From NCBI RefSeq assembly GCF_008065095.1, contig NZ_CP042911.1, forward strand, positions 3,570,001 to 3,602,000: DNA of 32,000 bases, in the 5' to 3' direction. The notes below the pieces were generated by a model, which did not search any database, had not been told where the DNA came from, and worked only from the letters and a program-made list of their open reading frames with translations. The translations under genes were made by a program, and so were the position numbers. This DNA is from Gemmata obscuriglobus. GTDB lineage: Bacteria; Planctomycetota; Planctomycetia; Gemmatales; Gemmataceae. Below are positions 15,276 to 32,000 of this stretch, one piece after another. Numbering within the stretch: position 1 is the stretch's first letter; every line of letters starts with the position of its first letter.

Positions 15276-16316
15276 TCACTTCTGGTAGATCGGCAGGTAG
15301 TGCGTCGGGACGCTGAGGATCAGCACCGCAATAGCGGTCTGGTAGGTCGGACCGTAGGCCGCCTCGCGGTAGATGTCGTGCCACTCGCCGGTGCCCTTCT
15401 GAAAGCCCGGGGCGAGCAACTGGTCCCGCATCCGCTTGTAGTACTTCTCCCACAGCTCCCCGCCGACCTGGTTCATCGCGTGGCACGCGTAGTAGTGCCC
15501 GTACCAGAAGTGCCCCTGGTCGTCGCCCGTCTTGGTCAGGAATTCGACCGCCTTCTTGATCTCGTCCGCGTCGTACTCGCCGCAGAGCTGGAGCACGCAC
15601 ACCCCGGCCGCGGTTCGCGCGTACCCGGCGCCCGCGGAGAACGGCTGGTACTTGTACCCGCCGGTTTTTTTGTCGTAGCACCGGTTCACGTACTTCAGGG
15701 CGTCTCGCATCACCTTGTCCGGCACGTGGATGCCGGCGTCCTTCGCGCCGCGCAGCGCCATGACCTGCATGATGGTGACCGAGATGTCCGCACCGGTCGG
15801 GGACGGGTCGTACCGCCAGCCGCCCTCGTTGTTCTGCGTCCTGACGATCAGGTCGATGGCCCGCTTGGTGACCTTCTTCACGTTCTCGTCGCCGGTCATT
15901 CCGTAGGCCTGCGTGAGGGCCAGGGTCGCCATCCCGTGGCAGTACATGTTGCCGCCGCGGGCGCCGACGAGGTAGCCGTCGGCGCGGGCGGCGGAGCACA
16001 GGTGGCCGACGCCCTTCGCGACGTGCCGGCCGTAATCGCCCTGGTCCGGCATGTGGCCGTTCGCCATGAACGCCAGCAGCACGAACCCGGTGATGGCGGT
16101 GTTGCCGCTGGCCCAGGCGCCGTCGGCCTCCTGCCGGCCGGCGAGGTACTTGAGTGCCTTATCGACGGCCTTCTTGGTCGCGTCGTCCATCTTCACGTTG
16201 TCCTTCGGGGCAACGCCGGGCGCGCTGTCGGCCTGCGGCGGTTGCGTGCCCGCGGGGGCGGCGAACGCGCCCGCGAGCGAGCCCGTCAGGACGAACGAGA
16301 AGAAGAAGCGGCGCAT
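15276..16316 (-). CDS. Secreted prenyltransferase/squalene-cyclase-like (alpha/alpha toroid repeat) protein
   Basis: Signal peptide MRRFFFSFVLTGSLAGAFAAPA. Repeated QxxDGGW-type units are present: GRQEADGAWAS, TQNNEGGWRYD and KKTGGYKYQP. Aromatic/Gly-rich helices (GFVLLAFMANG, MYCHGMATLALTQAY) are typical of the terpenoid cyclase/prenyltransferase repeat fold. Confidence 0.7.
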   Translation of the reverse strand: MRRFFFSFVLTGSLAGAFAAPAGTQPPQADSAPGVAPKDNVKMDDATKKAVDKALKYLAGRQEADGAWASGNTAITGFVLLAFMANGHMPDQGDYGRHVAKGVGHLCSAARADGYLVGARGGNMYCHGMATLALTQAYGMTGDENVKKVTKRAIDLIVRTQNNEGGWRYDPSPTGADISVTIMQVMALRGAKDAGIHVPDKVMRDALKYVNRCYDKKTGGYKYQPFSAGAGYARTAAGVCVLQLCGEYDADEIKKAVEFLTKTGDDQGHFWYGHYYACHAMNQVGGELWEKYYKRMRDQLLAPGFQKGTGEWHDIYREAAYGPTYQTAIAVLILSVPTHYLPIYQK

Positions 16317-16446
16317 GTGGGGCTCCGGCGGGCGCCTCGGGAACGTGCGGGCGGGGCGAGAATAACCAAGCCGGTGAGCCGTGTTGCGCTCGCCAGCGCG
16401 TGCGGTTCACCGGCCCGGCGGAACGACGAGCGGGGCGGCCTCCGGG

Positions 16447-19400
16447 TCACTTGCCGCGCGGGGCGGTGCCCATCGGCTTCCCGTTCTTGATGGTGACGTT
16501 GTACTGCTTGATCAGTTCGCGGAACTCGGCCGGGAACTGGGCGTCGGTGGTCTGCTGCACCTTGTCGCGGTCCTTGCTGCGGAGCTTGATGAAGGCGCCG
16601 TCCCCGGTCGTTCCGGTTCCGGACGAGCCGGCGTTCTTGAGCTTCTCGCCGCCGGCGCGGTCGCCTTCGCTCGTCCCCATGTTCGTACTCTGTTGGGACG
16701 TGCCCATTCCCATACCCATTCCCATCCCGGGTTGCATCCCCATCCCGGCCTGAGCCATACCCGTGCCCATCCCCGGCTCCATTCCCATGCCCATGCCGGG
16801 TTGCGTGCCCATTCCCATACCGGCCTGGGCCATCTGACCCATTCCGGGTTGGGCACCGGGCATGCCCTGGGCCATTGCGGCCTGGTTCAGCGCGTCGAGC
16901 GCTTGCTGGAGCCCCTGAGCGGCCTGCTGCTGGCTCATTCCGGCCTGATCCGGTTGCCCCTTCTGCAATTGATCGCCTGCTTTCTGGAGCTGGTCACCGG
17001 CCTGTTGCAACTGGTTCTGCACGGCCATCGGCGCGTTCGCCTGGGCCTGCTGGAGGGCGGCTTGGGCCTCGGCGTTCGCCTGCTGCGACTTGCGGAGCGC
17101 CTTTGTGGCGTCGAGCACCTTCTGCTGGAGTTCGATGAGCTGATCGGTCGTCGGGCTCTCGGGCAGCTTGTATTTCTCGATCAGCTCCTTGATGTCCTTG
17201 TCGCCCGCATCCTTATCGTCCAGCGGGGCGCACGGGTTGTCCGGCGGCCCCTTGTCACCCTTCTTGTCCAGCTCGGCCTTCTGCTCCTGTTCAACCTTCA
17301 CTTTCTTCAACGCGCCGAGCGCGCGCTCCTGGTACTCGATGCACTGCGGCACGTCGCCTTTCTCGAACGCTTTCGCGGCGAGATCGGCGGCCTTTGCGGC
17401 GTCGGGCATGTTCTGCTCGGCCGCTTTGATCGCGATGTACTTCTGGAGCGCCAGGATCTGCGGCCCGTCCTTCTGCTTGGCGTCGGCGGGCGTGCCGTCC
17501 GGGACGTTCAGCGGCTGTGCCTTTTTCGCCTTCTCGGCGGCGTCCTTCGCCTGCTCGATGGCCTTCGCGAGCTGCTGCGCGGCCTGCTGCGGGTCGACCT
17601 TGTTGGGCTGAAGCGCGGCCTGGTCCGCGGCCTCCTGGCCCTTCTTTTCGTCGATCTTCTTCTGCACGTCCTTTGCGGCGTCGGCGAGCTTGTCCGCGGC
17701 TTCTTTGGCCTTTTGGCCGCCCGCCATCGGCATGTTCATCGCGAGGTCGCTCTGCGCGCCCTCTTGCTTCGTGTTCGCATCGCCGACCTTGCCGGCGGCA
17801 TCGGGGGCGAGTTCCTTCAGCTCTGCGCCCACATCTTTCGTTGACTGATTCAGGTCCGCTTGCTTCTTCGCGAGGTCCCCGGTTTCGGGCTTTTTCGGAT
17901 CGCCGGCGGCCCGGTCGGCTGCCTTCGCCACGTCCTTCTCGCCTTTGGCGAGTTCGTCCAGTTTGCCCTTGAGGTCTTCGAGCTTGGCGATCTCGGCGCG
18001 GCGCTGTTCGATCGCCTTCGCTTGTTTTTCCAACTCGTCTCTGGCCCGTTCGAGGGCCTGCAGCGCGTCCTGCTGCTTCGGCTTCGCCGCGTCCGGTTGC
18101 TGGTTATCGAGTTGCGCGGCCGCCTGCTTTTGCGCGTCCAGCGCCTTGTCGAGCGCTGCTTTTGCGTCGGTGTTGGGCGGGAGCGGGGCGCCGCGTAGCT
18201 CCTCGGTCTTCTTGGCGACATCCTTCTGTGCGGTCGCGGCCTCGGGGGCACGTTCCGGCTTGGCCGAGGCCTTATCGGTTTTGGCGTTCGCGTCCTTCTG
18301 TTCCTTGATGATGGCGTCGAGGCGTTCGGCGGCCTGTTTGGTGGCGGCCAGCGAGTCCACCTTTGCGAGTTCCGCGGCGGCGATCTGGCGGTCGAGTTCG
18401 TCCTTCGCCTCGTTCAGCTCCTCCAGGGCCTGCTGCTGGGGCTCTTTGGCGCTGGCGATGTCGCGGTTGCGGAGCTTCTCTTCGGCGTCCCACTCTTTGC
18501 GCTCGGCGGAGCGGAGCTTCTCGGCCACGTCCGGGGCCGCCTCGAACGTCGCCTTATGGGCGTCGCGGGCGGCGAACTCGGCCTTGGTCTGCTGGTTGGC
18601 CAGTTCGTTCGCGCGGACGGTGTTCGGGTCGCTCCCCTGGCGCTGGATGCGGCGCACCTCGGCGGCGTCGAGCCGCTCGGCGGTGTCCCGGTTCACTTTC
18701 GTCTGGGCGCCGATCGCCTTATTGACCTCGGCTTGCGCCTTCTTGAGCGCGTCGAGCCGGCTGGCGGGCGGGGTCCGAAGCGCCGCTGCCAGATCCTTCA
18801 GCTCCTTCGTGTGGCGCCGCTGCGGCACGCTGGCACTGGTAAATGCACCCGCTTTTAGAAGGCCGGCGGTGTCCTTCATGTCCTCGGCCAGCTTCGCGCC
18901 GCGGGACAAAGCCTCGGCCCGTTCGAGCCGGGCCAGTTGGTCCGGGGTGAGCAGCTTCTCGGTCACCAGTCGGTTGACCTGTTTGAACACCGCGAGCACC
19001 TCGACCCGCAGTTCGCCCTGTTCGGCGGCGAGCGGCCCGCGGTCGTCGATGCGTACCGACCCGCGGGTGGGCAGGGTGGTGTTCGTGTGCGTGTCGCCGA
19101 TCAGCGCGATCTGCTTTTCGGCCGCCCGCTCGAGCCGGTCGGCGGCCTCGTCGAGGTTCTTGATGACGTCCAGTTGGCCCAACATCACCTTGAGCTGGGT
19201 GATGATCGTCTTGCTCGCCTCGGCGGCCTCTCTTTGCTCCTTGGTCGCGTTGGCGGGCGCCGCGACGGCCGCTTCAAGGTGGGCGAGTACGGCCCGGATC
19301 TCGGTCTCGCTCAGCCCGCGGAGGTCGTCGGCCACGCCGCGGAGCATCTTCTGCTCGGCGCCCGGCGCGAGCCGCTGGAACATGAGCGCGTCGAGCGTCG

Positions 19401-19560
19401 AGGACGTGCGGCGCGCGGCCTCGTCGATGCGGGCTTTGATCTTCTGCTGGTCGTCCCGCTGCTTGGCCGGGTCGGCGCTCTTGTCCTGCGAGGTGGCGAG
19501 CGGAACGAGGAGCCCGACCAGGAGCAGCGCGGCCGCGAACCAGCTACGACGGGTCGTCAT
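16447..19560 (-). CDS. Secreted giant coiled-coil/low-complexity protein (1037 aa) with a C-terminal Gly-Met repeat tract
   Basis: AAGGAGG lies 7 nt upstream of ATG 19560. MTTRRSWFAAALLLVGLLVPLATSQ is a signal peptide. About 900 aa are A/K/Q/E/D/L-rich heptad-like sequence. These are followed by a 55-aa GM tract and a C-terminal block GDGAFIKLRSKDRDKVQQTTDAQFPAEFRELIKQYNVTIKNGK. Confidence 0.8.
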   Translation of the reverse strand: MTTRRSWFAAALLLVGLLVPLATSQDKSADPAKQRDDQQKIKARIDEAARRTSSTLDALMFQRLAPGAEQKMLRGVADDLRGLSETEIRAVLAHLEAAVAAPANATKEQREAAEASKTIITQLKVMLGQLDVIKNLDEAADRLERAAEKQIALIGDTHTNTTLPTRGSVRIDDRGPLAAEQGELRVEVLAVFKQVNRLVTEKLLTPDQLARLERAEALSRGAKLAEDMKDTAGLLKAGAFTSASVPQRRHTKELKDLAAALRTPPASRLDALKKAQAEVNKAIGAQTKVNRDTAERLDAAEVRRIQRQGSDPNTVRANELANQQTKAEFAARDAHKATFEAAPDVAEKLRSAERKEWDAEEKLRNRDIASAKEPQQQALEELNEAKDELDRQIAAAELAKVDSLAATKQAAERLDAIIKEQKDANAKTDKASAKPERAPEAATAQKDVAKKTEELRGAPLPPNTDAKAALDKALDAQKQAAAQLDNQQPDAAKPKQQDALQALERARDELEKQAKAIEQRRAEIAKLEDLKGKLDELAKGEKDVAKAADRAAGDPKKPETGDLAKKQADLNQSTKDVGAELKELAPDAAGKVGDANTKQEGAQSDLAMNMPMAGGQKAKEAADKLADAAKDVQKKIDEKKGQEAADQAALQPNKVDPQQAAQQLAKAIEQAKDAAEKAKKAQPLNVPDGTPADAKQKDGPQILALQKYIAIKAAEQNMPDAAKAADLAAKAFEKGDVPQCIEYQERALGALKKVKVEQEQKAELDKKGDKGPPDNPCAPLDDKDAGDKDIKELIEKYKLPESPTTDQLIELQQKVLDATKALRKSQQANAEAQAALQQAQANAPMAVQNQLQQAGDQLQKAGDQLQKGQPDQAGMSQQQAAQGLQQALDALNQAAMAQGMPGAQPGMGQMAQAGMGMGTQPGMGMGMEPGMGTGMAQAGMGMQPGMGMGMGMGTSQQSTNMGTSEGDRAGGEKLKNAGSSGTGTTGDGAFIKLRSKDRDKVQQTTDAQFPAEFRELIKQYNVTIKNGKPMGTAPRGK
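16702..16866 (-). repeat. Coding Gly-Met microsatellite-like tract (GMPGAQPGMGQMAQAGMGMGTQPGMGMGMEPGMGTGMAQAGMGMQPGMGMGMGMG)
   Basis: The plus strand shows iterated cccat(t/a/g)cc units. By my count the 55 residues contain 16 Met and 20 Gly. Confidence 0.85.
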
Positions 19561-19703: not shown

Positions 19704-21995
19704 CTATTTCTTCTCCGGCTCTTTCGGCGCGTTCGTGGTTTGCCGGAACAGGTCGGCCTGGTCGGTGGCCAACTCGCGGAGCTTGTCCTGGAGCTGGAGC
19801 TGGAGCTGGCGGTTCTGCTCGTCGCGCATCTTGATCGCGACGCCCGCTTCCTCACCGGTCACCACGGTTTTCCGCCGGGCCTCGCGCGAGTGCCCCGGCG
19901 CGCGCCCGGGCGTAGGGTTCTTGTCGAACGCCTCGACGTATAATTCAACCGTGTCCCCGACCTCAAGTTTCGCGGTGGTGAACCCGCCGCTCCCGTCCGG
20001 GACGGTTTTTTGCAGCCCGTCGATCTCGAACATGTACCGCCCGCCGGCCTCCAGACCGGCGGGTTCCGCTTCCGGGTTCGGCGATGGCTGTGAGTAGAAC
20101 TCGACGTTCACCTTGAACTGGTCGAACTTGCTCAGCCCCTGCCAGGACTTCTCGAACAGCCCCAGGTCGGGCACGTAGTTGCCCACGGCCGCCAGGTTCG
20201 CGGTGACCGGTTTCAGCGGGAGTCGCTTGAAGACCTTCTTGTTCTCGGGCCAGTTCCAGTCCTGGCGCGGGTGCTGGACCTGTTGCCACTCGGGCGGCAT
20301 CGCGTCGGGGGCGACGCCCTTCGGGATCACCCGATAAGCGACGGCGGCCCGACCGACGCCCTGTTCCGAGCGGGCGCTGTAGACAACCATCACGCGCCCC
20401 CCTTCGGCGAGGGGGAACCGGTCGCCCCACTCGTGCGCCAGCTTGGCGGTGGACGTGCCGTGGTAGTTCTCCGGGTCCGGGTGCCGGGTGGACTCGGGCA
20501 GGAGCGCGACCGCCGGCGGGCGGTCCTCCAGCATGCGAACGGTGCGCCGGATCGGCACCTCGTTCGTGAACCCGCGGTCGTCGGTCAGTTCGATGCGGTA
20601 GCCGATCAGCTTCTCGTTCGTGGGGAACAGCCAGACCGCCGAGCGGCGGTCGGTGTCGATGTCGCGGGGCAACTGGAAGTTGTCCCCCGCCGACGGAACG
20701 AAATCCCGTTCGCGCGCCCCCTCGCGCAGGATCGGCACGAGCCGAGCGGACCGCACCGGCTTGTTGAACTTGGCGTCCACGCGGATCTGGGCGAGGGGCA
20801 GGGCGTCGCTCACGTCGCCGCGGACCCAGCCGTCGGTCCGGCGCACGAACGGCCCGCCGTCGGGTTGCGTGCCGAGGAACTTCGGGAGCCACAGTTCCGC
20901 GGTGAGTGCGTCGCCGTCGGGGCTGAGCTGCGGCCGCCCCTCGAACCGCACCCGGCCGGTTTCGCGCGTGCGGCCGCTGTCCAGGCGCGCCGAGAACCCG
21001 AAGTTGATGGACGAGGGCGGCAGCTTCGTGACGAAGTACGCTGCCCCGGGCTTGCCGGGCACCTCCTTCTCGTACACGAGGTCGTAGGTCTCTTCGGGCT
21101 GGCCGTCGGGCTCGACCCGTAGCCGGCCGCTGAACCCGGCGGTCGGCGGCGGGAGCGCGAACCCGAGTTCCGCACGAAGGCGGTCCGTGAACCACGGCCG
21201 CGGGTACGCGCCGGTCACCTCGTAACGCACCTGGACCTCCGCACCGATCGGCCATACCTCTTCGGACACGTTCTTCAACTGGATGCTGCGCGGGATCTCG
21301 GCGCTCACCAAAAGCTGGCGGCGGAGCAGCACCCCGGCCAGCGCGGGTTTCGCGAGCCCGAACACGGTCCAGCCGATCAGGACCGGCGCCGCCACGAGCA
21401 GCGCGAAGCCCAGCCGGCGGTAGTCCACGAGTTGTAGGAGGTTGTGAGCGGCGGCCAACTGGCCCGCCTCGCGCGTCACCGCGGCGATGAGGGCGGGCGA
21501 CATCCCGTGCGTGCGCGCGGCCGGGCGGTTCAACTGGATGGCGGTTACGAGCCGGTGCCCGAACGCCGGGATCGCCTTTTCCGCATGCTGTGCGAGGTCG
21601 TCGATCGGCGGGGTGCGCAGCCACGGGCGGACGAGCAGCCAGTAGGTCAGCCCCAGGGCGAGGGCGAGCTGCCCGAAGGTCATTCCGGCGTGCATCCAGC
21701 CGGGGGTATCATCGATGACCGCGGCCGGCGGGGGGCGGAACCCGTGGGCGAGCCGCATGTGGTCGCTGAACCAGCGCTCCTCGGCGGTGGGTGCGGTGGG
21801 GGCGAACACCCAGGTGGCGCTGAGCACCCGGCGCCACGTCTCGGACCCGAGGTAGCGGTCGGCGGTCCAGTCGGCGAAGCACGCGAGCGCGAGAACGGTG
21901 CCGAGGATCGCGACCAGCCGCGCCCCGCCCCACACGACCCGGATGAGCCGCTCGGTGCGCCGCCAGTGCCGGAGTTGCTCGAGTAGCAGGTTCAT
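19704..21995 (-). CDS. Large membrane protein (3 predicted TM segments plus a ~500-aa extracytoplasmic beta-rich domain); DUF4175-like N-terminus
   Basis: MNLLLEQLRHWRRTERLIRVVWGGARLVAILGTVLALACFADW resembles the N-terminal arrangement of DUF4175-type proteins found next to Bat/VWA genes (weak, from memory). Further TM segments are GMTFGQLALALGLTYWLLV and LGFALLVAAPVLIGWTVFGL. Start set at ATG 21995 rather than track start 22190. Confidence 0.6.
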   Translation of the reverse strand: MNLLLEQLRHWRRTERLIRVVWGGARLVAILGTVLALACFADWTADRYLGSETWRRVLSATWVFAPTAPTAEERWFSDHMRLAHGFRPPPAAVIDDTPGWMHAGMTFGQLALALGLTYWLLVRPWLRTPPIDDLAQHAEKAIPAFGHRLVTAIQLNRPAARTHGMSPALIAAVTREAGQLAAAHNLLQLVDYRRLGFALLVAAPVLIGWTVFGLAKPALAGVLLRRQLLVSAEIPRSIQLKNVSEEVWPIGAEVQVRYEVTGAYPRPWFTDRLRAELGFALPPPTAGFSGRLRVEPDGQPEETYDLVYEKEVPGKPGAAYFVTKLPPSSINFGFSARLDSGRTRETGRVRFEGRPQLSPDGDALTAELWLPKFLGTQPDGGPFVRRTDGWVRGDVSDALPLAQIRVDAKFNKPVRSARLVPILREGARERDFVPSAGDNFQLPRDIDTDRRSAVWLFPTNEKLIGYRIELTDDRGFTNEVPIRRTVRMLEDRPPAVALLPESTRHPDPENYHGTSTAKLAHEWGDRFPLAEGGRVMVVYSARSEQGVGRAAVAYRVIPKGVAPDAMPPEWQQVQHPRQDWNWPENKKVFKRLPLKPVTANLAAVGNYVPDLGLFEKSWQGLSKFDQFKVNVEFYSQPSPNPEAEPAGLEAGGRYMFEIDGLQKTVPDGSGGFTTAKLEVGDTVELYVEAFDKNPTPGRAPGHSREARRKTVVTGEEAGVAIKMRDEQNRQLQLQLQDKLRELATDQADLFRQTTNAPKEPEKK

Positions 21996-22108
21996 TCGTC
22001 GGTGCCCAAACGCGCCAGCACGTTGGCTCTTTGTGACCCCTGCTCCCTTGCGGGAAGGGGCAAAAATCGAACGCCAGCGCGGAGGCGCCGGCCGGTGAGG
22101 CGGGTTAC

Positions 22109-24634: not shown

Positions 24635-24728
24635 AGGCGCGCGGCACCCGTTATCGAACAAAGACCCGGCGTCTGACACCACGTCCGGTTGAAGGCGAGT
24701 TCCCAAGAACGCCGCCGCATGTATTCGT

Positions 24729-24995: not shown

Positions 24996-27242
24996 TCACC
25001 ACGCCCGGCCGCAGAACCACGCCCACGTCGCTTCACCCATCAGGAGCAACAACAGCGCCAGCAGGACCCACTCGGTCCATTCGCCGTGGGTGCGGCGCTC
25101 GCGGATCGCGGTCTCGGTGCCGGCCCCCGCCTGGATGATCGTTGGGCGGTACCCGAGCATTTTCTCCAGCTCTGAATCAGACACCGGTTCGAGGTTGTCG
25201 GTTTCGCGCAAATCCGGATTGACCGCGAACGTGGCGCCGTCGGCTTGAGCCCCGCCGGCCGGCACGATCGCGTATTCGCCGGCCACCAGCGAATCGGCGG
25301 TGCTGACGACCGGCCGCGCCCCGGCACCGGCCTTCGCTTCGCCGAGCTTCACCCGCAGACGGTTCCGGCCGTCGTCGCCTTTACCGGTTCGCGGGCGCGG
25401 CTTGATCAGTTCGTACCCGGACGCCGCAACCGGCGGCGCCCAGGTTAGCGTGTCGCCGGCCGTCCGCGCGCCGCCCGGAACCTTGCGGCCCGTGAGGTGC
25501 GAAACGATGTACGTGGTCAACGGGACCGCGAACTGGCCGTCTGCCATCAGCCGGCTACCCCAGGACTCGTCAAGCGGGGCGGCGAAGAAGAGCACCTCGC
25601 CGTCGCCGACCACCCGCGACGCCACCAGCGGCCGGTTGTCGGTGGTGCGGACCCGCACCCGCCCGCCGGCGGCGTCGGGGCCGGTGTCGTCCAGGTGCAG
25701 CATCCGGGTGAACGTGGCGCGGTCGATCCAGTCGGCGTAGGGCTTCACCTTCCCGAACACGTCGTCCCGGTCGTCGATGCTTTCGACCGCCGGCCGGAAC
25801 GGCGCCTCGGCGGTCGCGGCCGGGAGGTCCGGCCCGAGCGGCACGGGTAACAGCCCGGCGCCCGCGCGGCCCAGCACGCGGTTGTAGTCGCCCGGGTTTA
25901 CCAGCGGGCCGGCGCCGAAGACGAGCCCGCCGCCGCCCTTCACGAACTCGGCGAGCTGCGAGACGAACGCGGGCGGCATCCCGACGAACGGGTCGTCGGT
26001 GCGCACCGGCGCGTTCAACAGGTAGACGATGTCCTTGCCGGCCAGCTTGTCCGGCCCGACCTCGGCCGGTTGCACGGACTCCGTGGCGATGAAGTACTTT
26101 TCGATCTTGTCCCGCTCGCGCTCGGTGTCGAACGGGACCAGGGCTTTGCGCACGAACCAGTCGCCGGCGTCGGTGGCCGGCAGGCCAGCGAACGGGTGGG
26201 CCACCAGGAGCGCGTTCACCTTATCGCGCACGCCGACGATCTTGTAGAGGACGTTGTCCCCGTCGAGCCCGTCGCCGTCGGCGTACACCGCCAGCAGCCG
26301 CGGCCCGGACTCCTCAAGGCCGCCGGTGAGCGTGACCTCGGCGGTGGCGCCGGGGTCGATTTGGTCGATCTGGGTCGCGTCGCGCTCCACCGCCTTGCCG
26401 TCGAGTTCGAGCGACACCTTGATCCCGCGGACCGGTTCCGGGCCGGTGTTCTTGACCGTCACGACGAAGGGCACGCGGGTGCGGGTGTGCGGGATCGCGG
26501 CCAGTAGCTTCACGTCCACGACCGAGACGTTCGGGATCTTGCGCCCCGGGTTCCCGCACCGGACGAACACGAGGCCCGCCTTCTTCTCGCGGGCCTCCTC
26601 GCACTTCGCCCGCAGCCCCGGCTGCTGGCGCTCGAACCCGCTCTTCTGCAGGTCACTGAAGACGTAAATCTCCTTCGCCGGGGCGGTGCCGGTCTCGGCC
26701 GCCGCGAGCGCGTCGGTCAGCCCGGGCAGGACGTCCGTCGAGAGGCTCGTCACCTCGATGGAGCGAACGAGCTGCTTCGCCTGGTCGCGGTTGTACCGCG
26801 ACACCGGGCCGAGCGCTTGCGCGCGGTCGGCACAGGCGTAGATCTGCACGGACGACTGGTCGGGCAGGGCGTCGAGCACCGCGACGGCCGCGTCCTTGGC
26901 GCGCTCGAGGCGCGTTTTCTCGCCGTCGCGGGCGGCCATGCTGTACGACGTGTCGAACATCAGGACCGCGTCGACGGGGCCGTCCGATGCGGCCCCGGAC
27001 ACGGAATCGAGCGCCGGGCGGGCCAGCGCGAGGGCGAGCAGGATCAGCGCGAGGCACCGGAGCAGCAGGAGCAACCGCTCCTGAAACTTGAGGCGGCGGC
27101 TGGTCTGCTCGACGGCCTCTCGGAGCAGCTTCATCGGCCCCCACGGCAGCGGCTTGTACCGCGCGCGGTAGAAGAAGTGCAGCGCGAGCGGCACGGTAAC
27201 GGCCGCCGCGCCGAACAGCATCAGGGGGGCCTGGAACGGCAT
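24996..27242 (-). CDS. BatA-like protein: N-terminal double-transmembrane domain plus VWA domain plus C-terminal TM anchor (748 aa)
   Basis: MPFQAPLMLFGAAAVTVPLALHFFYRARYKPLPWGPMKLL...LLLLLRCLALILLALALARP is the aerotolerance-regulator (BatA) N-terminal double-TM signature. The VWA MIDAS is VDAVLMFDTSYSMAARDG. The C-terminus EWTEWVLLALLLLLMGEATWAWF is a TM segment. Confidence 0.85.
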   Translation of the reverse strand: MPFQAPLMLFGAAAVTVPLALHFFYRARYKPLPWGPMKLLREAVEQTSRRLKFQERLLLLLRCLALILLALALARPALDSVSGAASDGPVDAVLMFDTSYSMAARDGEKTRLERAKDAAVAVLDALPDQSSVQIYACADRAQALGPVSRYNRDQAKQLVRSIEVTSLSTDVLPGLTDALAAAETGTAPAKEIYVFSDLQKSGFERQQPGLRAKCEEAREKKAGLVFVRCGNPGRKIPNVSVVDVKLLAAIPHTRTRVPFVVTVKNTGPEPVRGIKVSLELDGKAVERDATQIDQIDPGATAEVTLTGGLEESGPRLLAVYADGDGLDGDNVLYKIVGVRDKVNALLVAHPFAGLPATDAGDWFVRKALVPFDTERERDKIEKYFIATESVQPAEVGPDKLAGKDIVYLLNAPVRTDDPFVGMPPAFVSQLAEFVKGGGGLVFGAGPLVNPGDYNRVLGRAGAGLLPVPLGPDLPAATAEAPFRPAVESIDDRDDVFGKVKPYADWIDRATFTRMLHLDDTGPDAAGGRVRVRTTDNRPLVASRVVGDGEVLFFAAPLDESWGSRLMADGQFAVPLTTYIVSHLTGRKVPGGARTAGDTLTWAPPVAASGYELIKPRPRTGKGDDGRNRLRVKLGEAKAGAGARPVVSTADSLVAGEYAIVPAGGAQADGATFAVNPDLRETDNLEPVSDSELEKMLGYRPTIIQAGAGTETAIRERRTHGEWTEWVLLALLLLLMGEATWAWFCGRAW

Positions 27243-27272: not shown

Positions 27273-27827
27273 TTACCGGTTGCTCGTCAGGGGACGCTTG
27301 GCCGGGGCGGGCGGCTTCTCGGCGGACTTCTCGAACTTCAGCACGAGGACGCCCGGCGCGGACGGCTGGGGCGTGCGGGCCTTGAACTCGGTCGGCAGTG
27401 CGCCGCCGCCAGAGAACGCGACGAGGAGGTGGTCCCCGTCGAACTGGTAGATCCACTTTTCCGGCGGCTGCGGCTTCCCGTCCGGTCCGCTCGGGGTCAG
27501 GGTCAGCGTCTTCGGGTTCGCGGCGGTGTCCCAAACGACGGCGTGCGTTTCGCCCGGATCGGCGGACGATTCGCCGTAGGTCAGCTTGGTGCTCGAAAAG
27601 TGCAGCCACAGCGCGCGGTCGGCGGACGGCGATTTCATCCCGTCCCCCTTGTCCCCGCCGACCATTTTCCAGTACCCCTGGCACCGGTCCTGGTCCGACG
27701 CGGTCGCCCCGGGGCCGGACGGCCCCGGAGGAGCGCCCTCGGGAGCAGGGGCGGGTGCGGGCGTTTTGCCGCACCCGGCGGCGAGAACCGTGCCCACGAG
27801 CAGCGCGGTGAAAGCGGGCGTGCGCAT
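27273..27827 (-). CDS. Lipoprotein with TIGR03067-like (Planctomycetes uncharacterised) domain
   Basis: MRTPAFTALLVGTVLAAGC is a lipobox. Domain blocks are CQGYWKMVGG, ANPKTLTL, KWIYQFDGDHLLVAF, LPTEFK and VLVLKFEK. AGGAG lies upstream of ATG 27827, which is 17 nt after the preceding stop. Confidence 0.7.
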   Translation of the reverse strand: MRTPAFTALLVGTVLAAGCGKTPAPAPAPEGAPPGPSGPGATASDQDRCQGYWKMVGGDKGDGMKSPSADRALWLHFSSTKLTYGESSADPGETHAVVWDTAANPKTLTLTPSGPDGKPQPPEKWIYQFDGDHLLVAFSGGGALPTEFKARTPQPSAPGVLVLKFEKSAEKPPAPAKRPLTSNR

Positions 27828-27844: not shown

Positions 27845-28579
27845 CTACTTGGTCGTCGCTCTGATCGGGAGTGTGCTCACGGGCTGGGTGCTGGCTCGCG
27901 TCCGGAACGGCGGCGGTTCGGTCGTTCTCTTCAGCGTGATGACCATCACCGCGGGGACCGCCGGCTGCCCCGCCTGGCTCGATTCCGCCCGGGGCTTGAA
28001 CTCCGTCGGCACCAACGTTTTGTTCTTCTTGATGAACGCGACCGTGAGGGTGTCGCCGTCCAGTTTGTAGATCCAGCGCCACGTTTCCGACGGGCGCGGG
28101 GGATTGGCGCTGCCGGCACCCGTTCCGTAGGCCGCTCCTCGGGAGGTGCCGGCCCGATAGGACCCCGCCCGCGCGGTGCTGAACGCCGCCGTCGCGCGCG
28201 GGGCGACCGCGGTGCCGCCGCGCGCGGTGGACACCGCCACGGGAACGTCCGGGCCGCCGAGCCGGAGCGCCAGCACCTTCGGGTTCTTGGATTCATCCAG
28301 GGTGAACGACACCGGCTCGTTCTCGCCCTGCTCGACGATGATCATCCGGTACCCGTCGAACACGAGCCGGACCTGCTTGATCATCTCCTCGGCTTCCTTC
28401 CGCTCAACGCCGGTGAGCGTCTAGATGTGCCCGTCCTCGGCGGACGTGACGGCCCAGACGCCCTGGAGCGCCTTGGCGTCTCCTCTGAGTTCGTCGGACC
28501 GGGAGTTGGGCTGGGTCGGCCGCGCGCAGCCGCCAACGGCGGCTGCGGCGATCAGTACGAGCGGGACGAACTTGCGCAT
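27845..28579 (-). pseudogene. TIGR03067-like lipoprotein gene interrupted by an in-frame TAG at codon 53 (28421-28423)
   Basis: ATG 28579 gives MRKFVPLVLIAAAAVGGCARPTQPNSRSDELRGDAKALQGVWAVTSAEDGHI*TLTGVERKEAEEMIKQVRLVFDG... and continues in the same frame as track ORF 27845..28384. The paralogous fragment at 29320-29490 has GAA (Glu) at this codon. A GAGGAA RBS precedes the ATG, 15 nt after the upstream stop. Confidence 0.65.
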
Positions 28580-28594: not shown

Positions 28595-29101
28595 TCACTT
28601 CGGGACGCGGGTGAAGGTCATGAGCTGGATGCCGCCCGGTGTGTCCTTGTTGTCGAACCCGCGGGGCGCCTGGTTGCCGCCCGAAGTAGCGAGTACGAGT
28701 GTATCAGCTTTGAACGTGTAAATCATCACGCACGGTAGCTCCGCTGCCTCGTCTCGAACCGGCACGCCCTTCAGGGTGGTCACCCGCGCTTCGGGCCACG
28801 CCAGCCGGGTCGGGTTTGCCGTCGTGTCGATTCGAATCACGGCGATACGCCGTTGGTTCTGTTGTTTGTCAACTACGGTCAGCTTGTTACCCCGAAACTC
28901 CAGGACGATTTCAATACGGGTGTCAGGTGGTACGTTTTTTCCGTTGATTTCCATCTCTGTGAGCTTCCAGTCGCCCTGGAGCTTTTGGAGATCCGGCTCC
29001 TCGCCCTTCATCAGGTGCCTGGGCACCGGGCCGCCCAGCACCAGATTGCCGGGGGCACAGATAAGTGCGAAGGGAACCGCGAACAGCGCGAGGAACTTCA
29101 T
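28595..29101 (-). CDS. Secreted TIGR03067-like domain protein (copy A of a tandem duplication)
   Basis: MKFLALFAVPFALICAPGNLVLGG is a signal peptide. Domain blocks are LQKLQGDWKLTEMEINGKNVPPD, IDTTANPTRL, CVMIYTFKADTLVLATSGGNQAPRGFDNK and IQLMTFTRV. Start at ATG 29101; the longer track ORF reads through the upstream leader. Confidence 0.75.
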   Translation of the reverse strand: MKFLALFAVPFALICAPGNLVLGGPVPRHLMKGEEPDLQKLQGDWKLTEMEINGKNVPPDTRIEIVLEFRGNKLTVVDKQQNQRRIAVIRIDTTANPTRLAWPEARVTTLKGVPVRDEAAELPCVMIYTFKADTLVLATSGGNQAPRGFDNKDTPGGIQLMTFTRVPK

Positions 29102-29319
29102 GGGGCGTTTCCTGGCCTGGAGGCCCGTTGCCGGTGGCACTGTTAGCAAGCGATCGCACCACACGACCGCTGGGGAAAATTGAACAGGACCGACGCGATG
29201 AGTGAGGTGCGAGGGGCCGGAGGGGGGCCGCTCTCGCTCATCTCTCTCCCGTGGATCCGGTCTGCCACCGTCTTCGGTTCCGCCACTGTGCAGCCACAGG
29301 CCGAGGGGAACAAGCCCAT
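29102..29319. repeat. 218-bp conserved leader/intergenic repeat, copy 1 (213/218 identical to 30019-30236)
   Basis: Aligned by eye, with 5 mismatches. It lies immediately upstream of the MKFLALF start codon in both copies. Confidence 0.85.
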
Positions 29320-29490
29320 GTCCTTCCGCTCCGCGCCGGTGAGCGTTTCGATGTGTTCGTCCTCGGCGGAAATGACGGCCCACACGCCCTGGAGCGCCTC
29401 GGCGTCCCCCTTGAGTTCGTCCGACCAGGAGTTGGGCTGGGTCGGCCGCGCGCAGCCGCCAACGAGTACGAGCGGGACGAACTTGCGCAT
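29320..29490 (-). pseudogene. Truncated 5' fragment (~57 codons) of a TIGR03067-like lipoprotein gene, cut off at the tandem-duplication junction
   Basis: MRKFVPLVLVGGCARPTQPNSWSDELKGDAEALQGVWAVISAEDEHIETLTGAERKD is homologous to the N-terminus of the 27845..28579 gene. After codon ~57 the ORF (track 29143..29490) runs into leader repeat copy 1 and loses all domain similarity. Confidence 0.7.
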
Positions 29491-29505: not shown

Positions 29506-30018
29506 TCACTTCTGGACGCGGGTGAAGGTCAGGAGCACGACCTCCGGTTCGTTCTTGTTGTCGAACCCGCGGGGCGCCTGCTCCTGGTTGCCGCTGCGGG
29601 CGGCGAGTACGAGTTTACCAGCTTCAAACTTGTAAAGCATCACGCACGGCTTCTCCGCATCGTCGTCCTTCACCGGCCCGCCGTTCAGGTCGGTGACCCG
29701 CGCCTGCTGCCAGGTGATTCGGGCCGGCTGCGCTTTCGTGTCGAGCCGGAAGGTGGCGGTCGTCCGCTGGTTTTGTTGCCCGGCGGTCACGATCAGCGTG
29801 TCGCCGCGCACCTCCAGCCCGCTGCCGGCGTTGTGTCGGCTCATGTCGATTTCGGCTCCGCCGAGCGACACCGCCGTGAGGTTCCACTCGCCCTGGAGTT
29901 TTTGAAGCTCCGGGTCTTCGCCCTTCATCAGGTGTTTGGGCACCGGGGCGCTCAGTACCGGGTCGCCGAGGGCACAGACAAGTGCGAAGGGAACCGCGAA
30001 CAGCGCGAGGAACTTCAT
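29506..30018 (-). CDS. Secreted TIGR03067-like domain protein (copy B of a tandem duplication)
   Basis: MKFLALFAVPFALVCALGDPVLSA is a signal peptide. Domain blocks are LQKLQGEWNLTAVSLGGAEI, LDTKAQPARI, CVMLYKFEAGKLVLAARSGNQEQAPRGFDNK and VVLLTFTRV. Start at ATG 30018. Confidence 0.75.
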   Translation of the reverse strand: MKFLALFAVPFALVCALGDPVLSAPVPKHLMKGEDPELQKLQGEWNLTAVSLGGAEIDMSRHNAGSGLEVRGDTLIVTAGQQNQRTTATFRLDTKAQPARITWQQARVTDLNGGPVKDDDAEKPCVMLYKFEAGKLVLAARSGNQEQAPRGFDNKNEPEVVLLTFTRVQK

Positions 30019-30388: not shown

Positions 30389-30943
30389 TCAGGGGCGTTC
30401 CAGCACCCACACGGGCGGGCCGTCGGGCGCGTCGAACGCCGCCGGGCGCGGGCTCGGGTCGGGCGCGACGACCACCCTGGCGGTTCCGTCCGAGAACGCG
30501 TAAATCCCGCGCAACACGAACGCGGACGGCTGATCGTCGGGGCCGATTAGCGCGAGGTCGAGTTCCTTCGGGTTCGCTTCGGGGCGGAGCGTGAGCCGGT
30601 ACCGCTTCTGCTCCTGCTCGCCGACGAGGTACACCCACCGGTCGCCGGTGATCCGCACCGTCACCGGGAGCCGGGTCTCGCGCCCGTTCGGGGCGAGGAG
30701 CCACACGCCCTGGAGCCGTTCGGCGTCGTCCCGGGGTTCAAGAGACCGGAGCGCGAAGTACCCGACGGCGCCTGCGGCGAGCCCCAGCACCACGAGGCCG
30801 ATACCCCAAAACCGCTTTCCGGAGGACGGCCGGGGAGGGCCGACCGGCGGGCGTGCGGAACCGGTGCCGGCTTGCGAAAGCCGTTCTTCCCCCTTCGCTT
30901 CGGTTGGGGGTGCCGGGGGTGTCGGTTCTTCAGCCACGCTCAT
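30389..30943 (-). CDS. Membrane-anchored TIGR03067-like domain protein, translationally coupled to DUF58
   Basis: ATG 30943 overlaps the DUF58 stop as ATGA. The product has a Pro-rich N-terminus, then a TM segment FWGIGLVVLGLAAGAVGYFAL. Domain blocks follow: ERLQGVWLLAPNGRE, ANPKELDL, LRGIYAFSDGTARVVVA, PRPAAFD and VWVLER. Confidence 0.7.
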   Translation of the reverse strand: MSVAEEPTPPAPPTEAKGEERLSQAGTGSARPPVGPPRPSSGKRFWGIGLVVLGLAAGAVGYFALRSLEPRDDAERLQGVWLLAPNGRETRLPVTVRITGDRWVYLVGEQEQKRYRLTLRPEANPKELDLALIGPDDQPSAFVLRGIYAFSDGTARVVVAPDPSPRPAAFDAPDGPPVWVLERP

Positions 30944-31830
30944 TTGCGTCCCATTTGCAGCCGGCGCACGAGGTATTCCGACAGCGCCACCTCGAGCGGT
31001 CGGTTCGTGAGCATCTTGACGTAGTCTACGCCGGCCCGGTCGCAACCGGCCTGGATGTCCGCGAGGTACCGCTTCACCACCCGCAGGTACGCCGGGCGCA
31101 ACAGTTGCGGGCGCGTCCGCAACTCCTCCGCGCCCTCCAACCCGACGAACCGGATGTTCCCGTCCAACGGGAAATTCACCTCGTCCGGGTGAAGCACGTG
31201 GAACAGGATCACCTCGTGCCCGCGGAACCGCAGGTGGCGTAGCCCTTCCAGAATGGGTTCAAGGTCTTCGAGGCAGTCGGAGATCAGGCACACGATCCCG
31301 CGGCGGCCGAGCCGGTCCGCGACCTCGCCGAGCAGCGGGCCGATGCGGGTACGGTCCCGCGGCTCCGTCCCTTCCAGCGTGTGGGTGATCGCGTTGATGT
31401 GCGCGAGGGACGAACTCGCCGGCAGCTCCGCGACCCAGCCGGTGTTGAAAATGCGGAGGCTGACGGTGTCGCGCTGGCGAACCGTCAGGTACGCCAGCGA
31501 CGCCGCGAGCAGTTTCGCGAACGCCAGCTTGTTCGCGTCCCCGCGGCCGTACCGCATCGAGTTGCTGCCGTCGAGCAGCAGGTGGCACAGGAAGTTGGTT
31601 TCCTGCTCGTACTGCTTGATGGTGTACCGCTCGCTGCGCCCGTAGCCCTTCCAGTCGATGTGCCGGATGTCGTCGCCGGGCACGTACTCGCGGTGCTGCA
31701 CAAACTCGACCGAGAACCCCTTGAACGGGCTCTTGTGGTCGCCCACGCGCAGCCCCTCCACCACCTGCCGGGCTTTCAAACCCAGGGCTTCGGCGCGGGC
31801 CAGGACTCGGGGATCGAGGTAGGTCGGCAT
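30940..31830 (-). CDS. DUF58 domain-containing protein (VWA-like, MoxR-associated)
   Basis: MPTYLDPRVLARAEALGLKARQVVEGLRVGDHKSPFKGFSVEFVQHREYVPGDDIRHIDWKGYGRSERYTIKQYEQETN is the canonical DUF58 N-terminal signature (HxSxxxGxSxEFxxxRxYxPGDDxRxIDW). Confidence 0.9.
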   Translation of the reverse strand: MPTYLDPRVLARAEALGLKARQVVEGLRVGDHKSPFKGFSVEFVQHREYVPGDDIRHIDWKGYGRSERYTIKQYEQETNFLCHLLLDGSNSMRYGRGDANKLAFAKLLAASLAYLTVRQRDTVSLRIFNTGWVAELPASSSLAHINAITHTLEGTEPRDRTRIGPLLGEVADRLGRRGIVCLISDCLEDLEPILEGLRHLRFRGHEVILFHVLHPDEVNFPLDGNIRFVGLEGAEELRTRPQLLRPAYLRVVKRYLADIQAGCDRAGVDYVKMLTNRPLEVALSEYLVRRLQMGRK

Positions 31831-31840: not shown

Positions 31841-31943
31841 CGGAATGCGGAGCGCGGAATTCGGAATCAGAAGCACACCGGCGCGGAAGCGAACGCAGTT
31901 CGGATTCCTAGCTTTCGTTCCGAATTCCGTGTTCCGCATTCCG
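31841..31943. repeat. 26-bp imperfect inverted repeat (24/26) rich in CGGAAT units, in the moxR-DUF58 intergenic gap
   Basis: cggaatgcggagcgcggaattcggaa (31841-31866) pairs with ttccgaattccgtgttccgcattccg (31918-31943). The region is AT-richer than its surroundings. Each arm contains an EcoRI-type gaattc. Confidence 0.7.
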
Positions 31944-31949
31944 GGTTCG

Positions 31950-32000
31950 TCAGGCGGCCACCGCCTTGGCGGCAGTTTTGACCAACCGACGGATCACCTC
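31950..32000 (-). CDS. 3' end of an upstream gene, probably a MoxR-type AAA+ ATPase (only the last 16 codons are in the window)
   Basis: The minus-strand frame reads ...EVIRRLVKTAAKAVAA* and is open to the window edge. The MoxR assignment rests only on conserved MoxR-DUF58 gene order. The fragment itself is not diagnostic. Confidence 0.35.
   Translation of the reverse strand, partial: EVIRRLVKTAAKAVAA

Follow-up and report, generated by a model that had tools for sequence, protein, structure and literature searches.

Known MoxR-VWA systems

Bat operons, such as those of Bacteroides fragilis, Borrelia (bb0170-bb0176) and Leptospira (bat), encode a MoxR ATPase (AAA_3) followed by a DUF58 protein. 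They also encode membrane proteins with a BatA-type N-terminal double transmembrane segment and a VWA domain with a MIDAS motif. The Gemmata obscuriglobus locus described here shares all these elements. Other Bat products, seen for instance in locus L065, are BatD-family and TPR/SH3 proteins (BatC, BatE); the window, i.e., the whole 32,000-nucleotide stretch that we analysed, encodes none of them. The Gemmata BatA and VWA2 proteins have 750-840 residues, against about 330 in Bacteroides; the additional parts are beta-sandwich and GATase1-like regions together with an anchor at the C-terminus. Three further Gemmata proteins (TM3; CC, the long helical protein; cyc, the toroid protein) are without a Bat counterpart, and an hhalign comparison of TM3 with BatD gave no sign of similarity (probability 0.08%). 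The first-pass annotation had considered the coiled-coil and toroid tail foreign to the classic bat operon, and the Bacteroides operon used for comparison indeed lacks genes for a long helical protein and a toroid, with BatD and TPR genes in their place. Even Bat-type systems have no settled function: a Leptospira biflexa strain without any bat gene showed no phenotype (PMC3557215).

The cmdA-D operon of Rhizobium leguminosarum (RL3499-RL3502) encodes MoxR, DUF58, a TIGR02226 double-anchor protein and a TIGR02302/DUF4175 protein. Its first three gene types are like those of the Gemmata locus. The fourth protein is anchored in the membrane and exposes a long Gln/Gly-rich stretch of low complexity outside the cytoplasm, and TM3 and CC resemble a split DUF4175 protein, a likeness in architecture for which homology is not established. 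To our knowledge, the four-gene cmd operon has neither a second VWA protein nor a toroid gene. Mutations in this operon impair the envelope and cell morphology (Vanderlinde et al. 2011, cited by PMC5700661).

The NorQ/NorD, CbbQ/CbbO and RavA/ViaA pairs likewise combine a MoxR AAA+ hexamer with a MIDAS-bearing VWA protein, which couples ATP hydrolysis to remodelling of the target (PMC13036017, PMC9976466). Their targets are defined cytoplasm-facing enzymes, whereas the Gemmata locus encodes no client enzyme and its remaining VWA proteins seem to be oriented towards the periplasm.

With a probability of roughly 55%, we read the locus as the form taken in Gemmata by a planctomycetal MoxR-VWA envelope module that is conserved, related to Bat/Cmd and equipped with a lineage-specific periplasmic extension. 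The first part of this module is a five-gene core (MoxR, DUF58, BatA, VWA2 and TM3), a relative of Bat and Cmd. The second part, judging from sequence comparisons, is a tightly paired tail of CC and cyc that is usually attached to the core. The cluster thus joins a widespread, poorly understood Bat/Cmd-type ATPase/adhesion-domain module to TM3, CC and cyc, all three uncharacterised and either membrane-bound or exported. The first-pass annotation gave no described function for such an extended planctomycete version, and our literature search found no paper on it.

Organisation of the locus

All genes from 15276 to 32000 are on the minus strand (Table 1), both in the list of open reading frames and by third-position GC, which indicates minus-strand coding in the same frames over 15.3-32.0 kb. 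The one-strand gene train of the first-pass annotation was correct as to strand. Of this train, 3.7 kb are a lineage-specific insertion of TIGR03067 genes, and the minus-strand run goes on below 15276. The genes below this position show no synteny in the loci of relatives and lie outside the conserved block. Among the tight junctions reported earlier, the ATGA overlap (DUF58/T1) and the spacings of 15, 15, 17 and 30 nt match the gene coordinates; a junction of 41 nt had been missed. The wider intergenic gaps, taken from the gene models, are of 113, 119, 130, 143, 361 and 370 nt.

Table 1. Features of the Gemmata obscuriglobus locus (positions in the window).
Feature	Position	Strand	Length (aa)	Description
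cyc	15276..16316	-	346	secreted single-domain (alpha/alpha)6 toroid, three QW-type repeats
CC	16447..19560	-	1037	signal peptide; helical region of ~850 aa rich in Ala/Lys/Gln/Glu
TM3	19704..21995	-	763	N-terminal helical membrane domain, ~4 beta-sandwich domains, C-terminal long helix
Terminator-like hairpin	22073..22092	-		just 3' of VWA2 stop; 8 pairs, 7 G-C
VWA2	22109..24634	-	841	double-anchored, MIDAS DVSQS, GATase1-like/DUF7408 region
Palindromic repeat element	24716..24874	.		within 361-nt BatA-VWA2 gap
BatA-type protein	24996..27242	-	748	N-terminal double-TM hairpin, VWA, CARDB beta-sandwich, C-terminal TM
T6	27273..27827	-	184	TIGR03067 lipoprotein, 82.4 bits, lipobox-like LAAGC
Pseudogene	27845..28579	-		TIGR03067 lipoprotein pseudogene, in-frame TAG at 28421-28423
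T4	28595..29101	-	168	secreted TIGR03067 protein, 93.6 bits
Gene remnant	29143..29490	-		TIGR03067 lipoprotein, ~60 N-terminal codons, then unrelated sequence
T2	29506..30018	-	170	secreted TIGR03067 protein, 96.5 bits
T1	30389..30943	-	184	TIGR03067-like membrane-anchored protein; start overlaps DUF58 stop (ATGA)
DUF58 protein	30940..31830	-	296	soluble, VWA-like, MIDAS DGSNS
MoxR-type AAA+ ATPase	31950..32000	-		3' end (16 codons and stop); remainder outside the window

Terminator-like sites are, in total, no more numerous in the region than expected by chance. The palindromic element folds as RNA at -131.7 kcal/mol (z-score -10.8) and is missing from all 62 other loci compared; it is strain-specific and unlikely to be a working part of the system. 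Given the gaps of 113-361 nt, the hairpin after VWA2 and this stable palindrome, a single transcript is not assured at the Gemmata obscuriglobus locus.

Proteins of the core

Orthology alone identifies the gene cut by the window edge as MoxR. Its translation ends in EVIRRLVKTAAKAVAA before the stop codon, and its C-terminus matches that of the orthologue of Gemmata sp. IIL30 (L001:865-1878), which ends in DEVIRQLVKSAAKAVAA. This orthologue matches AAA_3 (209 bits), AAA_lid_2 (60 bits) and PDB 2R44 (4e-79), and also the bpMoxR model (47 bits). The AAA+ partner that had been proposed from gene position is thus confirmed through its orthologue. The DUF58 assignment holds (PF01882, 133.5 bits; VWA_2, 30.1 bits, in the Pfam profile search). 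The protein lacks a hydrophobic segment and has its MIDAS motif at residue 87, with DxSxS present in 35 of 35 orthologues.

BatA matches BatA_N (65.5 bits), VWA_2 (48.4), CARDB (33.6) and TIGR02226 (78), and its hydrophobic segments are two at the N-terminus and one C-terminal anchor. The two double-anchored VWA proteins with intact MIDAS motifs of the first-pass annotation are present: DTSYS is at residue 97 of BatA and DVSQS at residue 92 of VWA2, and DxSxS is kept in 36 of 38 and 39 of 42 orthologues, respectively. Hence, the motif is conserved in all three VWA-type proteins. The profile matches anticipated for these proteins were obtained for BatA (BatA_N, TIGR02226, VWA_2), but VWA2 stayed below the Pfam thresholds (VWA, 19.7 bits; GATase1_like, 20.1 bits). 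Distant VWA2 orthologues match DUF7408 (33 bits, cut-off 27).

TM3 matches no Pfam or NCBIfam family, although it belongs to a large unnamed family with 1417 cluster representatives at E<=1e-10. Its high-confidence AlphaFold2 model (pLDDT 87.9) suggests a stalk, anchored in the membrane, in which some four Ig-like domains are followed by a terminal long helix, and Foldseek matched it to generic Ig/MG-domain arrays only.

Conservation across planctomycetes

We studied synteny around TM3 in 58 Gemmatales genomes, where the order DUF58-BatA-VWA2-TM3 is nearly invariant. VWA2 is present in 42 of 43 loci, BatA in 38 of 39 and DUF58 in 34 of 35. CC comes next in 36 of 43 loci, and cyc is there in 31 of 39. 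In Limnoglobus roseus the seven genes are packed into an operon and lie only 3-45 nt apart. The same seven genes, with overlapping stop and start codons, occur in two divergent planctomycetes (L059 and L060, the latter with a GC content of 40%), and a third locus (L062) shows the TM3-CC-cyc portion on a short contig. In these divergent lineages TM3 is 23-24% identical, and CC and TM3 together span 23-29%. When metagenome contigs were anchored on cyc instead, CC adjoined it in 18 of 20 and the core lay upstream in 16 of 19. The linkage of the distal genes to the MoxR/DUF58/VWA core, on which the first-pass annotation depended, therefore holds for the majority of Gemmatales genomes and also for planctomycete lineages that are far more divergent.

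The Bat-like core, the CC-cyc pair and the TIGR03067 array might nevertheless be functionally separate units whose adjacency reflects shared history. The gaps of 113-361 nt, the terminator-like hairpin after VWA2 and the large hairpin element are compatible with this. So is the independent distribution of the parts: CC and cyc stay paired when detached from the core (L063, L083, L102, L103), e.g., in Urbifossiella limnaea and three metagenome contigs, the core occurs without the pair in L016, L024, L046 and L047, and loci have from 0 to 4 TIGR03067 copies. Yet order and strand persist at 23-24% TM3 identity and across a 26-point GC difference. Such conservation, with the codon overlaps of L059, would be hard to maintain without selection, and the core is upstream of cyc in most contigs. 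We therefore regard separate units as rather unlikely.

The CC-cyc tail

CC has the length, the signal-peptide-like N-terminus and the long helix expected of the secreted coiled coil that had been announced, but a coiled coil is not demonstrated: the heptad power (0.95) is below the shuffle maximum (1.08), and the protein has 48 prolines. On its C-terminal side, a Gln/Gly/Met/Pro-rich low-complexity stretch precedes the conserved motif FPAEFRELIKQYN. No Pfam or NCBIfam profile matched CC above threshold. The DUF4175 match that had been predicted did not materialise beyond sub-threshold hits in five of 14 CC orthologues (best 25.9 bits, cut-off 27.3). TIGR02302 matched one of the 14 (4e-4), none of three distant orthologues matched either profile, and TM3 reached at most E=0.42.

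The description of cyc as a secreted alpha/alpha-toroid protein is supported by its signal-peptide-like N-terminus and by SQHop_cyclase_C (38.3 bits) and SQHop_cyclase_N (33.3 bits). Its profile matches squalene-hopene cyclase at 1.7e-10. Toroids of squalene-hopene cyclases and prenyltransferases share the (alpha/alpha)6 fold with cyc, which has QW-type repeats, and so do the thioester domains of alpha-2-macroglobulin and complement. Unlike these proteins, cyc consists of just one domain of 300 aa, carries a signal peptide and lacks both the DxDD and the thioester motif; it is conserved as partner of CC and not in a terpenoid pathway context. A squalene cyclase is thus disfavoured; the most likely identity of cyc is that of a ligand-binding module or of an enzyme other than a cyclase.

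If cyc were an active periplasmic glycan or isoprenoid/triterpenoid enzyme, the cluster might process or export an envelope polymer or lipid, with CC and TM3 as scaffold. The conservation of cyc fits this: none of the other distal proteins comes near it (52-53% identity in the divergent lineages, against 23-29% for TM3 and CC), and many of its polar and aromatic residues are invariant, among them those of MY[CS]HG, GGWRY and DIS[VA]T. Foldseek searches with its high-confidence AlphaFold2 model (pLDDT 88) retrieved many toroid enzymes and thioester domains, including GH76 mannanases, cellobiose 2-epimerases, AprG and terpene cyclases, but with TM-scores of just 0.5-0.66 at 9-15% identity. The catalytic motifs of these neighbour families were not found in cyc, two orthologues have Ser in place of the conserved Cys of MYCHG, and no substrate-synthesis genes are linked. 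This makes an enzymatic cluster doubtful.

Proposed role of the module

For the envelope module, a role in assembly is suggested by topology and by the phenotypes of distant relatives. By analogy with characterised MoxR/VWA pairs such as NorQ/NorD, the cytoplasmic MoxR hexamer and the soluble MIDAS-bearing DUF58 adaptor would use ATP to remodel or assemble membrane clients. These clients would be BatA and VWA2, held in the cytoplasmic membrane by a hairpin of helices at the N-terminus and one more helix at the C-terminus, with their VWA/MIDAS, beta-sandwich and GATase1-like domains exposed to the periplasm. This orientation is drawn from the charge distribution, ambiguous for VWA2, and from the Borrelia homologue BB0173, whose VWA domain was mapped experimentally to the periplasm (PMC5700661). 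The exported CC, a helical protein of about 1000 residues, and the exported cyc would probably dock on the BatA/VWA2/TM3 platform via the MIDAS sites. The assembled parts may form a periplasmic structure contributing to envelope architecture or integrity, as suggested by the rhizobial cmd mutants with their defective envelope and morphology.

The homology of the core to Bat genes also recalls the aerotolerance or oxidative-stress role proposed for the Bacteroides operon. Gemmata species are aerobes, no product has a redox domain in the Pfam and NCBIfam profile searches, and the locus lacks BatD and the TPR proteins, which are specific to Bat. Stress phenotypes are reported for moxR and batA mutants of Riemerella (PMC11834572), but the Leptospira bat deletion had no oxidative phenotype (PMC3557215), and such a role is quite improbable here. 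An anti-phage or conflict system is scarcely credible: MoxR-vWA ternary systems are described as conflict systems (PMC7159879) and the MoxR orthologue matches bpMoxR, but no component matches a PADLOC model beyond noise, effector-like domains are absent, and the cluster, single-copy in each Gemmatales locus compared and with a common gene order, points to vertical inheritance.

The TIGR03067 array

The inserted array comprises four intact TIGR03067 genes and two remnants. T2 is part of a tandem duplication of about 920 nt; T4 is 57% identical to it, with flanks 90-94% identical in DNA. The pseudogene matches TIGR03067 in its C-terminal part (43 bits). T1 resembles T6 (BLASTP 1e-4), and its orthologue follows DUF58 in loci of the Gemmata/Frigoriglobus clade and is absent from those of Fimbriiglobus and Limnoglobus. 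Translationally coupled to DUF58, T1 is the only candidate for an extra subunit among the TIGR03067 genes.

Gene content of the cluster

The cluster at 15276–32000 is a MoxR-VWA module like those of the Bacteroides aerotolerance (Bat) and rhizobial cmdA-D (Cmd) operons, set apart by a conserved extension of three genes, TM3, CC and cyc, whose families are undescribed. Gene content and order are conserved, and the products carry MIDAS motifs, hydrophobic anchors and signal peptides. We read the cluster as encoding a periplasmic assembly, driven by MoxR and DUF58, for envelope architecture or integrity (probability around 0.55). The first-pass annotation had proposed an envelope system here; it was largely right, and the finding is real.

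The G+C content ranges from 61 to 73% across the window, and the coding frames are therefore sharply marked by the GC of third codon positions. Between 15.3 and 32.0 kb, the phases with high GC3 and low GC2 are those of minus-strand genes, in the same frames as the long ORFs, which bears out the minus-strand gene train described from the sequence. We picked start codons from the alignment of orthologues and from N-terminal features. The gene coordinates reproduce the junctions initially listed, i.e., one ATGA overlap, gaps of 15, 15, 17 and 30 nt, and gaps of 113–370 nt.

Coordinates of the cluster genes and of other features of the window
Feature	Position	Strand	Remark
165-aa protein, GH42M/ThuA-like 796-aa protein, HEAT-repeat 1171-aa protein	7967–14904	minus	downstream of cyc
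M20 peptidase			downstream of cyc
cyc	15276–16316	minus	346 aa, exported toroid protein
CC	16447–19560	minus	long helical exported protein
AT skew of -0.5 to -0.56	17001–19000		within CC
TM3	19704–21995	minus	membrane protein, Ig-like domains
Hairpin and T run	22073–22092	minus	directly 3' of the VWA2 stop codon
VWA2	22109–24634	minus	second VWA protein
Palindromic element	24716–24874		~160 nt
BatA	24996–27242	minus	
T6 (TIGR03067)	27273–27827	minus	intact
Larger TIGR03067 remnant	27845–28579	minus	decayed lipoprotein gene
Tandem duplication	28395–30168		~920 nt
T4 (TIGR03067)	28595–29101	minus	intact
Shorter TIGR03067 remnant	29143–29490	minus	decayed lipoprotein gene
T2 (TIGR03067)	29506–30018	minus	intact
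T1 (TIGR03067)	30389–30943	minus	intact
DUF58	30940–31830	minus	
MoxR, 3' end	31950–32000	minus	final 16 codons

The window contains no Rfam family and no tRNA. A scan with a sigma-70 model, which is uninformative for Planctomycetota, found no promoter. Between the VWA genes and TM3, the G+C-rich hairpin with its T run may serve as an internal terminator or attenuator; terminator-like hairpin sites were overall not more numerous than expected by chance. The AT skew is the DNA footprint of the CC gene, which has an A-rich coding strand and a product rich in Ala, Lys, Gln and Glu.

The MoxR-DUF58-VWA core

The AAA+ partner, previously deduced from its position, is a MoxR by orthology. Its orthologue in Gemmata sp. 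IIL30 (L001) matches AAA_3 with 209 bits, and the C-terminus of this orthologue (...DEVIRQLVKSAAKAVAA) matches that of the gene at the window edge (EVIRRLVKTAAKAVAA). The MoxR gene has the same position in four other loci (L044, L047, L060 and L061). DUF58 starts directly downstream of the MoxR stop codon, after 119 nt, and matches PF01882 with 133.5 bits, as had been expected. The BatA call held as well (BatA_N 65.5, TIGR02226 78 and VWA_2 48.4 bits, MIDAS motif DTSYS); this protein also matches CARDB (33.6 bits). The proposal of a second VWA protein stood for the MIDAS motif (DxSxS), kept in 39 of the 42 VWA2 orthologues, but not for the family match, which remained below the cut-off (VWA 19.7 bits, cut-off 23.8), as did a match to GATase1_like. 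The architecture of VWA2 parallels that of BatA, and distant VWA2 orthologues pass the threshold of DUF7408. Sequence searches of the PDB with DUF58, BatA, VWA2 and TM3 returned no related solved structure.

Conservation of the gene order

We retrieved 58 loci from a species-representative genome collection using the TM3 profile. They are labelled Gemmatales or Planctomycetota, save three MAGs labelled Alcaligenaceae (L040, L043) and Bacteroidales (L047). Counting only the loci where the contig leaves room, the genes upstream of TM3 included VWA2 in 42/43, BatA in 38/39 and DUF58 in 34/35 cases. Synteny of the distal genes with the core, on which the proposed system had been staked beforehand, held: CC was found downstream of TM3 in 36/43 loci and cyc in 31/39. 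The locus of Limnoglobus roseus packs the seven genes of the cluster, from MoxR to cyc, at gaps of 3–45 nt, without TIGR03067 genes.

Three distant members of the TM3 family were traced to their contigs. Two of these, with 66% (L059) and 40% GC (L060, whose relatives are labelled Planctomycetota), encode the entire cluster with unchanged gene order and with stop codons that overlap start codons; the third (L062) encodes the TM3-CC-cyc portion. Proteins of L059 and L060 are 52–53% identical to those of the window for cyc, 43–44% for DUF58, 28–33% for BatA, 27–29% for VWA2, 25–29% for CC and 23–24% for TM3.

Reciprocally, we scanned metagenome contigs with cyc as the anchor. CC was directly upstream in 18 of 20 contigs; in the other two, a gap of the size of CC precedes TM3. 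Of 19 contigs, 16 had the core upstream. The exceptions had only the CC-cyc pair, and the same holds for the complete genome of Urbifossiella limnaea. Since this pair sometimes stands alone, the cluster comprises two sub-modules, i.e., a core of five genes and the CC-cyc pair, which is fused to the core in most but not all cases. Solitary pairs could also point to separate neighbouring units; we regard this reading as improbable, and favour a single periplasmic assembly.

None of the 58 loci has a counterpart of the four genes downstream of cyc, and we rejected these genes as members of the system. The conserved block therefore ends at 15276. Three of these genes lie directly below the cluster: the 165-aa protein has no family, and the 796-aa protein has GATase1-like domains of the GH42M/ThuA type. 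Separately, the 81 kb plasmid pPL62-3 of Planctomyces sp. SH-PL62 (L064) carries at 551–8531 a core of a second type, which comprises a frameshifted DUF58, BatA, VWA and a membrane protein of 744 aa. The similarity of this protein to TM3 is only weak (hhalign E 0.0012) and concerns the N-terminal domain of TM3. Unrelated genes follow where CC and cyc would stand.

The TM3, CC and cyc proteins

TM3 and cyc are 97% identical to proteins of Gemmata algarum / Gemmata sp. JC717 and JC673. TM3 matches no Pfam or NCBIfam model, nor does either database have a model for the large family to which it belongs (1417 cluster representatives at E ≤ 1e-10 in a 50%-identity library). Its structural model (pLDDT 87.9) predicts an N-terminal helical membrane domain, around four beta-sandwich domains and a C-terminal helix of 38 residues, for which Foldseek returned only generic arrays of Ig/macroglobulin domains. 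We rejected homology with BatD (hhalign probability 0.08% against Bacteroides BatD). The NCBI name of a 97%-identical orthologue of TM3 (P0001) is "FUSC family protein", which has no Pfam or NCBIfam support in TM3 or in the 14 relatives aligned with it. Some TM3 relatives have 1000–1340 aa (P0104, P0245, P0246, P0254, L061:10001–13009); in these, repeated C-terminal domains of PA14-like or WD40-like type replace the separate partner encoded downstream. No TM3-CC fusion, i.e., no Rosetta-stone link, was found among the long relatives, and the two are separate genes in every locus examined.

CC also lacks a match in Pfam and NCBIfam. It is composed of 18% Ala, 10% Lys and 9.5% Gln, and contains 48 prolines. 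Its heptad periodicity exceeds the mean of shuffled sequences but not their maximum. The label "coiled coil" originally given to CC was hence dropped in favour of the safer "long helical exported protein". The DUF4175 match anticipated in the first-pass annotation was found neither in CC nor in TM3, and membership of either in this family is not supported. Among 14 CC orthologues, five match the C-terminal half only of the DUF4175 model (PF13779) below threshold (best 25.9 bits, cut-off 27.3) and one matches TIGR02302 (4e-4); none of three distant orthologues matches either model. These matches may be compositional.

The cyc protein has the expected similarity to squalene-hopene cyclases (SQHop_cyclase_C 38.3 and SQHop_cyclase_N 33.3 bits; profile comparison 1.7e-10), through their QW repeats. 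It has a signal peptide, and its model predicts a single (alpha/alpha)6 toroid (pLDDT 88.0), in agreement with the secreted alpha/alpha-toroid protein originally described. Its Foldseek neighbours are single-domain cyclase-like proteins, AprG, GH76 mannanases, 2-epimerases and thioester domains, at TM-scores of 0.5–0.66 and 9–15% identity. The QW repeats and the toroid are shared with squalene-hopene cyclase, but the catalytic DxDD is not conserved in the cyc alignments, and the two-domain beta-gamma architecture (~630 aa) is absent from this single domain. Scores against NCBIfam equivalogs were 29–33 bits, for cut-offs of 322–431. We do not read cyc as a cyclase because it lacks DxDD, is only half as large as a cyclase and has a signal peptide. 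The annotation "terpene cyclase/mutase" is, like "FUSC family", corrected here as unsupported as a functional call. A Zn site at MYCHG is unlikely, the Cys being Ser in two orthologues.

Given its high conservation, cyc may be an enzyme or a specific ligand binder. A machine centred on an enzyme would accord with this conservation, and less well with the missing DxDD; we consider such a machine unlikely, and prefer an assembly for envelope architecture or integrity.

In a Planctomycetia MAG (L061, 1484–2479), a divergently oriented gene for a different secreted SQHop-like toroid adjoins moxR. We rejected it as a rearranged linkage, as it is a 22%-identical paralogue of cyc without the motifs of cyc orthologues. 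Many such paralogues seem to exist in planctomycetes; hence the presence of a neighbouring toroid gene counts for little by itself.

Comparison with known systems

The classical Bat operon (B. finegoldii record) encodes AAA, DUF58, BatD, VWA, VWA, TPR, BatD and TPR. The window has the same first two genes and BatA-type VWA proteins, whereas no product of the window matches BatD or TPR (BatC/BatE). Conversely, the CC and cyc tail is absent from the Bat operon, as the first-pass annotation had stated. The nearest system in architecture is the Cmd operon, which encodes MoxR, DUF58, a double-anchor protein and a DUF4175 protein. A CmdD-like protein of the DUF4175 type combines, in a single chain, 2–3 TM helices at the N-terminus with a long extracytoplasmic tail rich in Gln and Gly, whereas in the window two genes encode the membrane part (TM3) and the helical, low-complexity part (CC).

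The cmd operon is the sole relative with an envelope and morphology phenotype (Vanderlinde et al. 2011, as cited in PMC5700661). The function of Bat is otherwise unsettled: bat-type genes give stress phenotypes in Riemerella (PMC11834572), and bat gives no phenotype in Leptospira (PMC3557215). We give little weight to aerotolerance, to which the Bat likeness might point, or to defence. PADLOC matched no defence model: MoxR gave only AAA hits at noise level (E ~0.005), and the seven remaining proteins gave none. The first-pass annotation knew of no function for the extended planctomycete version, and we found no paper on it in the literature library searched. The cluster genes are not mentioned in Pinos et al. 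2016. The "conserved genetic module" of PVC bacteria (Kamneva et al. 2012) was rejected as a match, since it consists of DUF1501/PSCyt.

A proposed periplasmic assembly for the envelope

Among MoxR/VWA pairs, NorQ/NorD is the one with the best understood mechanics: a finger of the VWA protein inserts into the pore of the AAA+ ring, and a linker is twisted (PMC13036017). The BatA-type VWA domain of Borrelia BB0173 faces the periplasm (PMC5700661). In the assembly that we favour, MoxR and DUF58 would act from the cytoplasm on BatA and VWA2, and the periplasmic VWA domains of these two proteins would form one periplasmic assembly with the TM3 stalk, CC and cyc, which would serve the envelope. The planctomycete version brings in three conserved partners whose locations and shapes are clearly predicted: a putative Ig-domain stalk, an exported helical protein of ~1000 aa and a strongly conserved exported toroid. 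They are concrete candidates for the assembly product of the motor. If the assembly is structural, it would bear on the construction of the atypical planctomycete envelope.

A more specific and quite speculative version is that TM3, CC and cyc, on a VWA platform assembled by MoxR, form a planctomycete-specific structure spanning the periplasm, with a membrane-anchored Ig-domain stalk, a helical spacer and a toroid cap binding lipids or glycans. It could tether the envelope layers or keep them spaced, or else move triterpenoid lipids from one layer to another. In that case, these genes would open the unusual enlarged, invaginated envelope of Gemmata-like bacteria to genetic study. To our knowledge, few bacterial gene clusters that lack a mechanism are as widespread as the MoxR-DUF58-VWA ("Bat/Cmd") operons, which were discovered more than two decades ago. 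The cluster offers a well-delimited way into this long-standing problem and perhaps into the biology of the planctomycete envelope.

Lineage-specific insertions

The TIGR03067 genes T6, T4 and T2 score 82.4, 93.6 and 96.5 bits, and the larger remnant, a pseudogene, 43 bits (NCBIfam cut-off 40.15). Family support for T1 is a BLASTP match to T6 only (1e-4); T1-like genes after DUF58 are confined to the Gemmata/Frigoriglobus clade. The extra copies result from the tandem duplication. The flanks and signal-peptide regions of the duplicates are 90–94% identical in DNA, while the central parts diverged and the proteins are 57% identical overall. Such a pattern points to gene conversion of the ends or to diversifying change of the central part. 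The larger remnant has an in-frame TAG where its sister copy has GAA, and the shorter is cut off after ~60 codons at the duplication junction.

The palindromic element fills much of the 361-nt gap between BatA and VWA2. It consists of two copies of CCTCCCTGCAGGGAGG inside longer inverted arms, and as RNA would fold at -131.7 kcal/mol (z-score -10.8). Neither the 62 other loci compared nor the plasmid collection contains this element, which may be a strain-specific REP/MITE-like insertion. It could act as a transcript barrier or stabiliser. T1, the TIGR03067 duplication and this element explain the 17-kb length and the loose spacing of the gene train.
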